DNA from: a virus | Virus genome (UHGV): UHGV-1354558 | Direction: 5' to 3' (one strand) | Length of the DNA: 39,910 nucleotides | Shown: piece by piece, positions 17,205 to 19,334 of the stretch | How the letters are laid out: each line of letters begins with the position of its first letter | How positions within the stretch are numbered: position 1 is the first letter of the stretch | The notes under the pieces: model-generated | What the model saw: only the letters and a program-made list of their open reading frames with translations | What the model was told of the DNA's origin: nothing | The model's database searches: none | Translations under genes and position numbers: made by a program

Positions 17205-19334
17205 ATGTCAGATATCACCGCAAATGTTGTGGTAAGCATGCCTTCGCAACTCTTCACTATGGCGCGTTCTTTTAAAGCCGTAACTAATGGCAAAATTTAT
17301 ATCGGTAAAATTGACACGGACCCGGTAAATCCTGAAAACCAGATTCAGGTTTATGTGGAAAACGAAGACGGCTCTCACGTTCCTGTTTCGCAACCAATCA
17401 TCATTAACGCTGCTGGTTACCCTGTATATAACGGACAGATTGCCAAGTTCGTAACTGTGCAAGGCCATTCTATGGCTGTTTATGATGCATACGGTGCGCA
17501 GCAGTTCTATTTTCCGAATGTGCTAAAGTATGATCCAGATCAGTTTAAGGGCAATCTCCTGAGCGAAGATCACTCACTTGGCGACTCTCTAGTCATGCAT
17601 AACCCACAGTTTGTCGATAGCACATCGACCATTCTCTCAAAAAAGCTAACTATCGACCTGAGGACGCTTACAGACTACGGGTTTGCTGAGGGAAACACCG
17701 GTGCTCAGAACAAAGCAGCATTCCAGGCTGCCATTGACGATGCAGTCATGGCGACGGAAATTGTAATACCACCAGGGGCGTATATCTGCGACCCCGGTGT
17801 TACTATCGGGAATTCAAATATCATCCGCATCCGCGGTGCTGGAATGTATCAAACGGTGATTTTTACCGCTGGCGAGGCGGACCCATTAATCACCCAGGCG
17901 TCAGGTAAAATAGTAACGTTCTGTGAGTTTATTGATTTTGGCTTGAATGGTAACTATAAAGCAAACACTCTTCTTAACCTGACAGAAGCTAACCACATAA
18001 AAATAATCAGGGTGCAGTTTGCCAACACCATTGGCAATGCGCTTGTCCTTAATGGATATTCGAATGATATCGAAGGCTGCCGATTCATGGAGAATAATGG
18101 CAACGCTGTTACTTTGGGTGGCGTGTTAAACAATACGAACTTCGTGAACAATAGGGTGTATGGTAACAACGTTGGCGGTTTGATTCTCCATCCGTCTTAT
18201 GACGAGGGTGGTTTAAGTGTCAGAATTCAGGGGAATGACTTTGAACTGAATAAATCATTCGGGTTAATGGCTTACGGCATTAAAGGATTAAACATTATTG
18301 ATAATTACTGGGAGCGCAACGGGGAAAACGGATTTAATTATCCGGACATCGGTGGTGTTACCGTTAAAGCCGATTTGCATCTAATTGCTAACAGCTATTC
18401 TATAACCCCAAATGCCGTGAAGGCTAATGACGTGGTTCGTGTTTGCGGCAACCATCAGACCGCGTTTGGGTACGGTAACACTCTGGGGAATCAGGACGCT
18501 TTTGTGTTCACCAACTACGCAAAAAATCTTTGCGTGGAGCATAATGAGATGCTCGACCCGTCTAAAAACAACGCCCTGATAAGCGTATACAACAGCCATT
18601 ACGTAACTATCGTCACTGATGAAGTGCATATCCGAGGAAATAGCCGTAATGACATTGGTTTTATCGGTGCTGCGCAGGATGTTTACGACCACATCAGATG
18701 GGGGCATCTGATTCGCAACTTTAACGCGCCGAGACCAATAAACCTGTTAGAAAATAGCATGTTGTCATGGTTCCGATTTGCGGGGTCCACAGGTTCTTTA
18801 TTGAAAACAACAAATTATTTTAACAACAACTATTCATTTTCCGTAACGGACGGGGACTCTGTATGGGTAACTACTATTGACCTTTCGATACGTCCAGAGT
18901 TAAAAGATAAATATATTTGGTTCGGTGCTTGGGTAAACGACCAGGGTGCTTCCGCAAAATTACTTTTTGGCATCAACAGCAAATACTCTGACGACCTAAC
19001 TGTAGTAGCCGGGAGTGGCTCATGGAAATTTGTAAGTTGCTGCACTTACGTAGGGCCAGGGGATACCGTTATCAGGGCTAGTATCCAAAAAATAGGCTCA
19101 GGAGCCGATGTTCTTATAAACTCCCCCGTAATAGCGGAACTAGGTGTCTCCTATACGGACGTACAGTCGAAACCTACCGTATTCCGTGCGCCATCAGTGC
19201 CAACTACCGGGACGTGGAATGTTGGGGAGCGTGTTATCAATAGCGCACCTGCTTCAGGACAACCAAAGGCATGGACATGCAATATTGCAGGTGGTCCCGG
19301 GATTTACAGCTTCCTTTCTGAGGGGAATTATTAA
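17205..19334 (+). CDS. tailspike protein (P22 gp9-type N-terminal domain plus distinct beta-helix receptor domain)
   Basis: N-terminus [47 protein letters not shown]... is the conserved P22-type head-binding domain. The remainder has parallel beta-helix style repeats ([32 protein letters not shown]). 709 aa; GGAG upstream. Confidence 0.9.

Follow-up and report, generated by a model that had tools for sequence, protein, structure and literature searches.

We analysed the viral genome UHGV-1354558, a DNA stretch of 39,910 nucleotides (nt) read on one strand from 5' to 3' (the window), with a focus on the gene for its tailspike, a homologue of P22 gene 9. The genome is P22-like (Lederbergvirus), and its late genes are 94-97.5% identical to those of the E. 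coli phages Dewey, APC_JM3.2 and IME10. A first-pass annotation made from the letters of the sequence had described the spike as a mosaic, in which a P22-type head-binding domain is joined to a different beta-helix receptor domain. The spike is indeed a mosaic, and comparison with its relatives indicates that its receptor domain is a second allele of an O26-associated tailspike subtype.

Architecture of the tailspike gene

The features of the gene are as follows, with residues given in amino acids (aa) of the spike.

17205..19334, plus strand: tailspike gene (P22 gene 9 homologue), 709 aa plus stop
17194..17197, plus strand: Shine-Dalgarno sequence GGAG, 7 nt 5' of the ATG at 17205, read directly from the sequence
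17205..17549, plus strand: head-binding (anchor) domain, aa 1-115 (PF09008), predicted to dock the trimer on the gp4/gp10 tail hub
17550..17662, plus strand: lineage-specific linker or neck, aa 116-153, identical to that of the O26:H11 P22-like prophage spike and ~44% identical to epsilon15-type versions
17663..17803, plus strand: conserved junction zone, gene nt 459-599 (aa ~154-200), where similarity to spikes with other anchors begins and similarity to the O26:H11 allele ends
17655..18719, plus strand: right-handed parallel beta-helix, aa ~151-505, with an N-terminal cap helix and ~13 rungs
18054..18317, plus strand: candidate active-site rungs, with columns that do not vary among 19 homologues, the most distant at 34% identity
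18086..18801, plus strand: gene-conversion patch, gene nt 882-1597, with breakpoints within 18048-18085 and 18802-18832
18762..19139, plus strand: beta-sandwich after the helix, aa ~520-645 (AlphaFold2 strands 408-530), the most divergent part between the two O26-associated alleles
19182..19331, plus strand: small C-terminal domain, aa 660-709, with the motif GxWxxGERVINSxPxxGQPKAWxC; 3' homology arm

The plus-strand frame of the tailspike is open from 17157 to 19334 in the list of open reading frames. A start at the ATG at 17157 was dismissed, since all homologues begin with MSDIT or MTDIT and the ribosome-binding site matches 17205. Minus-strand reading frames of 86-108 aa within the gene had no support and were taken as spurious. 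Genes for P22_Tail-4 (gp4), Phage_stabilise (gp10), a needle with knob (gp26), gp7, gp20 and gp16 lie 5' of the spike, and gtrABC followed by int lie 3' of it; the gene therefore occupies the P22-like late-operon position, where its hub partners gp4, gp10 and gp26 are encoded as well. A residue-for-residue identical tailspike was present on two short Logan contigs, where the neighbours were again the Mnt-like repressor, the spike, gtrC-gtrB-gtrA and the integrase. The spike matched PHROG 8846 ('unknown function') over aa 19-709 with an E value of 2e-279, and an NCBIfam search gave nothing useful for the tailspike or for GtrC.

The Pfam Head_binding profile PF09008 matched aa 1-113 over its entire length (1-113/113, E 1.2e-66). 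Against solved structures the anchor gave E values of 1e-44 to 6e-66 (Sf6 gp14, 6e-66; P22 head-binding constructs, ~1e-50), with 74% identity to P22 and 88% to Sf6, and the proposal that the first ~115 residues form a P22 gp9-like head-binding domain is thus borne out. At the DNA level, 31 phage records (HK620, Sf6, CUS-3, IME10, epsilon34 and others) matched only gene nt 1 to ~345, and similarity to other Lederbergvirus spikes was lost at gene nt 339-351. The receptor domain had also been described as lower in guanine-cytosine (GC) content. This was incorrect: the GC fraction was 0.429 for aa 1-115, 0.456 for aa 116-709 and 0.473 for the whole window. Since the receptor part is slightly GC-richer than the anchor, we dismissed a GC shift as a sign of foreign origin; the real low-GC stretch is the downstream gtrC, at 0.32.

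The fold of the receptor domain was modelled with AlphaFold2 as a monomer of aa 116-709, using a 19-sequence alignment, and the model had a mean predicted local distance difference test (pLDDT) score of 87.7 and a predicted template modelling (pTM) score of 0.84. In the numbering of the model, a disordered linker (1-33) leads into a cap helix and a right-handed parallel beta-helix of ~13 rungs (36-390), followed by a beta-sandwich (~405-530) and a small C-terminal domain (545-594). The linker may be flexible or trimer-dependent, because pLDDT fell below 50 for model residues 1-33. The regular helix of the model, together with a match to Pfam Beta_helix PF13229 (aa 258-387, E 1e-7), confirmed the beta-helix-like domain that had been suggested. 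The suggestion that this domain does not match the P22 or HK620 tailspikes in sequence also held, in that searches of solved structures with the tailspike protein and with the 19-sequence profile matched anchors and necks only and never the helix core.

The C-terminal domain was 77-95% identical across alleles, and no Pfam model covered this part of the tailspike. The last ~50 residues (spike aa 655-709, window 19167-19331) resembled, at 36-49% identity, the very C-terminal ends of tail fibres and spikes from unrelated phages, including gp18.1 of Bacillus phage SPO1 and its relatives, Dickeya Limestone-like phages and Enterobacter phage fGh-Ecl02. By sequence similarity, the C-terminus of the tailspike appears to be a widely distributed terminal module that is not yet curated.

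Relatives of the spike and exchange of the receptor domain

The closest phage record was Escherichia phage N7 (MH717096.1), from swine faeces in China, whose 709-aa ORF20 (AYR02211.1), annotated only as 'tail protein', is 96% identical in DNA over the full length. The complete E. coli genomes FDN-9 and FDN-24, both chicken isolates, have a prophage remnant flanked by sbcB and dacD that encodes the same spike (WP_370212916.1). The tailspike belongs to an already recognised spike subtype, and near-identical, uncharacterised entries exist in the databases. N7 does not appear in part 1 of the two-part Table S1 of Pas et al. 2023 (PMC10408124). No characterised tailspike was nearly identical over the full length, and the nearest functionally tested relative, the prophage spike of RM10386, is only 58% identical in the receptor domain. 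This sister allele is the Lederbergvirus prophage spike of E. coli O26 RM10386 (I3U_RS19900), represented here by P0010 and by positions 6001-8124 of L004, a locus of E. coli O26:H11 strain 97-3250; the Uetakevirus prophage spike of E2865 (873 aa) is represented by P0019. Over the core, the L004 allele was 100% identical to RM10386 and 99.9% identical to E2865.

A protein search with aa 116-709 showed that at least four further anchor types carry the receptor domain, with aa identities of 87-94%. The epsilon15/Uetakevirus-type anchor (P0001 and P0084-87; proteins of 792 and 875 aa) has the N-terminus MTVSTEVDHNEYTGNG and PF18668, and the T7 gp17-type anchor (P0002) has PF03906 (T7 tail fibre), with holin and terminase genes following in the contig. 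The N-terminus of the CBA120 TSP2-type protein (P0003) matched 6w4q (E 3e-127), and its 151-kb contig holds four consecutive spike genes; that of the fourth type (P0004) matched PDB 9d80 (E 9e-142). The presence of one receptor domain on so many anchors upholds the view that a P22-type anchor and an unrelated beta-helix domain were joined by recombination. Judging from these matches, the receptor domain is a circulating cassette shared among P22-like, epsilon15-like, T7-like and CBA120-like phages.

DNA similarity to the spikes with other anchors began, by blastn, at gene nt 459 (P0001 DNA), 465 (P0003) and 496 (P0002), and the match to the O26:H11 allele ended at gene nt 599; the bin at this junction zone was 77-87% identical across all anchors. 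The O26:H11 sister allele was ~100% identical to the window gene up to nt 480, then 55-60%, and returned to 93% over the last 80-120 nt, where the DNA match resumed at gene nt 2011-2090. Window positions 16262-17803 tracked the O26:H11 prophage at 96%, and positions 17191-20040 tracked N7/FDN-9 at 96.7%. Recombination had been placed at the domain boundary, and aa ~115 is indeed where other P22-like spikes lose similarity. The exchange is, however, not limited to that point, since the inter-family junction lies at aa ~155-200 and there is in addition an internal patch and a conserved 3' arm.

The internal patch was delimited by a three-way site comparison of the window gene, N7 and the epsilon15-type spike gene (P0001 DNA), with 127 informative sites. 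These fell into three blocks, with 33 sites (nt 462-843) shared with N7, 74 (nt 882-1597) shared with the epsilon15-type gene and 20 (nt 1629-2102) shared with N7 again, and 0/127 sites were discordant. Both patch types occur on both the P22-type and the epsilon15-type anchor, which argues for recurrent exchange between two prophage genera. The proteins EFA4099055.1 (709 aa) and EFA4099486.1 (875 aa) have neighbouring accession numbers. The records suggest that one E. coli isolate has both P22-type and epsilon15-type spikes bearing this receptor domain, that is, both recombination partners in one cell. We conclude that the gene was assembled by homologous recombination at short conserved arms flanking and inside the receptor domain. 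Inter-family exchange of tailspike modules is textbook knowledge, and conceptually nothing here is new, but the cassette exchange is unusually clear, the receptor domain being bounded by conserved arms on both sides and the patch between two prophage genera being free of discordant sites.

The O26 link and the candidate active site

FDN-9 and FDN-24, the sole complete E. coli genomes bearing this allele, carry the O26 cluster (rmlBDAC, wzx, wzy, a GT2 gene, fnlA, wbjC, wecB, a GT4 gene and wbuC), with a wzx-wzy segment that matches O26:H11 strains at 100% identity. NCBI assigns one cluster member, which has the epsilon15-type anchor, to E. coli O26:H40. The core of the sister allele (at least 99% identity) was found in 105 genomes, including RM10386 and E2865. 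The two alleles together were therefore present in 107 genomes, compared with the 109 of 5426 complete E. coli genomes that have the O26 wzx-wzy segment, with strain names matched between the two lists only in part. The receptor domain is associated with O26 hosts, and the serogroup of host or lysogen was consistently O26, on two or three independent observations only.

Pas et al. 2023 (PMC10408124) place the threshold for a tailspike subtype at a receptor-domain identity of at least 30%, and assign the subtype of the RM10386 and E2865 spikes to O26 in silico. The window spike falls within that subtype, with 58% identity to P0009/P0010 and 53% to P0019-type proteins. The receptor domain of RM10386, placed on a CBA120 chimera, gave O26-specific luciferase and DNA delivery and no plaques (PMC12737597), and on an R2 tailocin it gave weak O26 activity at high doses (PMC11762384). 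Together, these relationships make the O26 O-antigen, a repeat of rhamnose, N-acetylfucosamine and N-acetylglucosamine (Rha-FucNAc-GlcNAc), the most likely receptor of the window allele.

The candidate active site was located from residues invariant in the 19 homologues (to 34% identity), namely G284-Y285-x-x-D288, E347 (in GNDFELNK) and N367-Y368-x-E370-R371-N372 (NYWERN). E347 and E370 are 23 residues apart, about one helix rung. We propose E347 and E370, and possibly D288, as putative catalytic residues. The P22, Sf6 and HK620 spikes, which are characterised P22-like spikes, are endoglycosidases. The O26 repeat is reported to contain no uronic acid (Manca et al. 1996), so that hydrolysis would be likelier than lyase chemistry. 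We dismissed classing the domain with its fold-level structural matches, which were 17-18% identical, had no sequence-profile match to the cores, and sat poorly with a presumed substrate, O26, without uronic acid. The window tailspike is thus probably an O26 O-antigen endoglycosidase, to judge from conserved positions and relatives.

A receptor domain that binds the O-antigen and leaves its backbone intact, as a pure adhesin or a deacetylase/esterase spike, would fit the absence of any detected CAZy-type family or glycosidase Pfam domain and the behaviour of the sister-allele chimeras, which adsorbed and delivered DNA and formed no plaques. We consider it improbable, because successive rungs carry Glu, Asp and Tyr motifs that do not vary among relatives of 34-94% identity, as is usual for a conserved catalytic site, and because the three characterised spikes named above cleave their substrates. 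A deacetylase or esterase is further disfavoured in that O-acetyl groups are not known from the O26 repeat. That the spike is instead a capsule or colanic-acid depolymerase was suggested by a match of aa 1-233 to PHROG 8280 ('tail spike protein with colonic acid degradation activity'). This match, however, covers the anchor and neck only and leaves the helix core outside, the allele tracks the O serogroup O26, and an O-antigen glucosylation module lies directly downstream in the phage; we regard a depolymerase of this kind as scarcely credible.

We therefore return to an O26 endoglycosidase. Six trimers would dock on the hub by analogy with P22, Sf6 and HK620, the head-binding domain (aa 1-115) plugging each trimer into gp4/gp10. 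The beta-helix, beta-sandwich and C-terminal domain (aa ~151-709) would bind the host O-antigen and probably cleave its repeats, which would let the virion progress to the outer membrane. The chemistry would be that of a hydrolytic endoglycosidase acting through E347 and E370, and possibly D288, which are conserved acidic residues of the helix. For the window allele we infer the receptor identity, the enzymatic activity and the catalytic residues from its relatives, and we hold it likely, with good though not full confidence, that the whole is a mosaic P22-like tailspike with the O26 O-antigen as receptor and a probable endoglycosidase activity, assembled by recombination.

Several points weigh against this reading. 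The putative catalytic residues were identified from conservation, and the top structural neighbours (AlgE4 epimerase, RbmB lyase and PfbA adhesin) were uninformative on chemistry. A literature search on phage N7 returned no paper, and the N7 and FDN-9 proteins are uncharacterised. FDN-9 and FDN-24 count as one observation, since they are apparently clonal (identical protein accessions), and their prophage is a remnant. The O26 link comes from carriers of the allele rather than from the window phage's own host, and 58% identity to the validated allele permits a different or narrower specificity. Finally, the RM10386-based chimeras adsorbed and delivered DNA without forming plaques, and the tailocin activity was weak.

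The downstream gtr module and comparison with known systems

Directly 3' of the spike lie the following features.

19340..19363, strand not assigned: 10-bp GC-rich hairpin between the convergent tailspike and gtrC genes
19372-20892, minus strand: gtrC, O-antigen glucosylation module, directly 3' of the spike
20892-21812, minus strand: gtrB, O-antigen glucosylation module
21809-22171, minus strand: gtrA, O-antigen glucosylation module

The gtrA-gtrB-gtrC module is intact in the window (19372-22171, minus strand). GtrC has 506 aa, matched no NCBIfam model or recorded Pfam family, and shares just 38% identity with GtrI from the Shigella phage SfI. Among 5426 complete E. coli genomes, no locus covered at least 80% of the gtrABC query, and the matches listed covered gtrB-gtrA only, at ~85% identity. 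In N7 and FDN-9, 670 nt at the 3' end of gtrC are all that is left of the gene, next to this spike allele. The 37-nt gap between the stop codons of spike and gtrC holds a perfect 10-bp hairpin (AAGAGAGGGA...TCCCTCTCTT), with a T-run on the minus strand only, which points to a terminator for gtrC that is possibly bidirectional.

At positions 8195-9337 of L004 (O26:H11 strain 97-3250) an acyltransferase-family gene lies 3' of the sister-allele spike. The two alleles are thus tied to different O-antigen-modifying genes, gtrABC here and the acyltransferase in O26:H11 prophages, and their O26 lineages are distinct as well, O26:H40 and chicken isolates for the window allele and O26:H11 for the sister allele. 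Their receptor-domain identity is 58% overall and, in the comparison with P0009, only 27-43% for aa 451-540 and aa 601-660. The same architecture could consequently serve a receptor other than plain O26, either another serogroup or O26 in one particular state only (O-acetylated, glucosylated or unmodified), and this would account for the coexistence of two 58%-identical alleles in O26 lineages. Against it, all carriers with a readable serogroup are O26, the two carrier groups have the same wzx-wzy sequence (100% identity), and the putative catalytic motifs are conserved; we consider such a receptor unlikely, although the observations in its favour have some weight. A more specific conjecture, which we regard as rather doubtful, is that the two alleles are non-redundant, each adapted to O26 chains modified by the other's module and blocked by the modification of its own lysogen. 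If so, there would be an arms race between serotype conversion and tailspikes inside one serogroup, with variation supplied by still ongoing spike gene conversion between Lederbergvirus and Uetakevirus prophages.

Plain O26 specificity remains the reading we prefer. Among non-O157 Shiga-toxin E. coli, O26 is the foremost serogroup. Receptor domains directed at O26 are in use as grafts on reporter phages and tailocins, and the sole O26 allele tried so far is weak, with no plaques and high tailocin doses. The window allele, found on five different anchors, is demonstrably portable, and it offers a natural second O26 part and an obvious alternative for grafting. What is worth keeping from this analysis is the probable O26 specificity of a portable second allele, the unusually clean evidence for recombination, both at the conserved arms and inside the receptor domain, and the linkage to a rare gtrC.

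Elsewhere around the spike, the gp16-type ejection protein (13631-16258, plus strand) has 875 aa, in which Phage_P22_gp16 (PF26808) is preceded by a fused SLT lytic transglycosylase domain (PF01464) at the N-terminus; P22 gp16 has ~609 aa and is not known to carry an SLT domain. The immI region (16261-17116, minus strand) retains only a predicted lipoprotein (161-173 aa, PHROG 6067, function unknown, signal sequence MKKSLLIIPLLLVGC) and an Mnt/Arc-type repressor of 99 aa. Unlike N7 and FDN-9, it has no arc or ant gene, and O26:H11 P22-like prophages show the same arrangement at 96% identity. An attP-type intergenic region is intact between gtrA and int (22172-22521), and the contiguity of gtrA, attP and int indicates that the window is an excised or virion form of the phage and not an integrated prophage.

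Among known systems, the P22 gp9, Sf6 gp14 and HK620 gp9 spikes (structures 2xc1, 2vbe/7sg7 and 2vji) have a homologous head-binding domain, 74-88% identical, and share with the window spike the plan of an anchor followed by a right-handed beta-helix, presumably trimeric in the window spike too. Their genes also have the same position, after the ejection genes and an immI remnant and before O-antigen modification genes and int. N7 and FDN-9/FDN-24 have, like the window, a full-length spike of 709 aa with the same anchor and receptor domain, followed by the 3' part of the same gtrC. In DNA, the N7 gene is 100% identical to the window gene over nt 61-840 and 1621-2130 and 80-95% identical over nt 841-1620, and the first 33 nt differ. 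N7 and FDN-9 differ from the window in a shared deletion (window 20041-22112) that takes in gtrA, gtrB and the 5' portion of gtrC, and in having arc-ant upstream of the spike, where the window has the lipoprotein and Mnt genes.

The O26-subtype spikes share with the window spike the domain order, the motifs GYSxD, GNDxExNK and NYWERNGE, the last 30-50 aa and, as with carriers of the window allele, O26 hosts. The head-binding domain and neck of the RM10386 spike (aa 1-175) are identical or nearly so to those of the window, whereas the receptor domains of RM10386 and E2865 are only 53-58% identical to it, and 27-43% in two regions. The sister allele is found in O26:H11 and followed by an acyltransferase, whereas the window allele is found in O26:H40 and chicken isolates and, in the window, is followed by gtrABC. 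CBA120 (Kuttervirus) TSP2-type and T7 gp17-type anchored spikes bear the receptor domain of the window at 87-88% identity, and the neck of CBA120 TSP3 aligns with the neck region of the window tailspike. The CBA120- and T7-type anchors themselves are absent from the window protein, and virion attachment and phage family differ accordingly.
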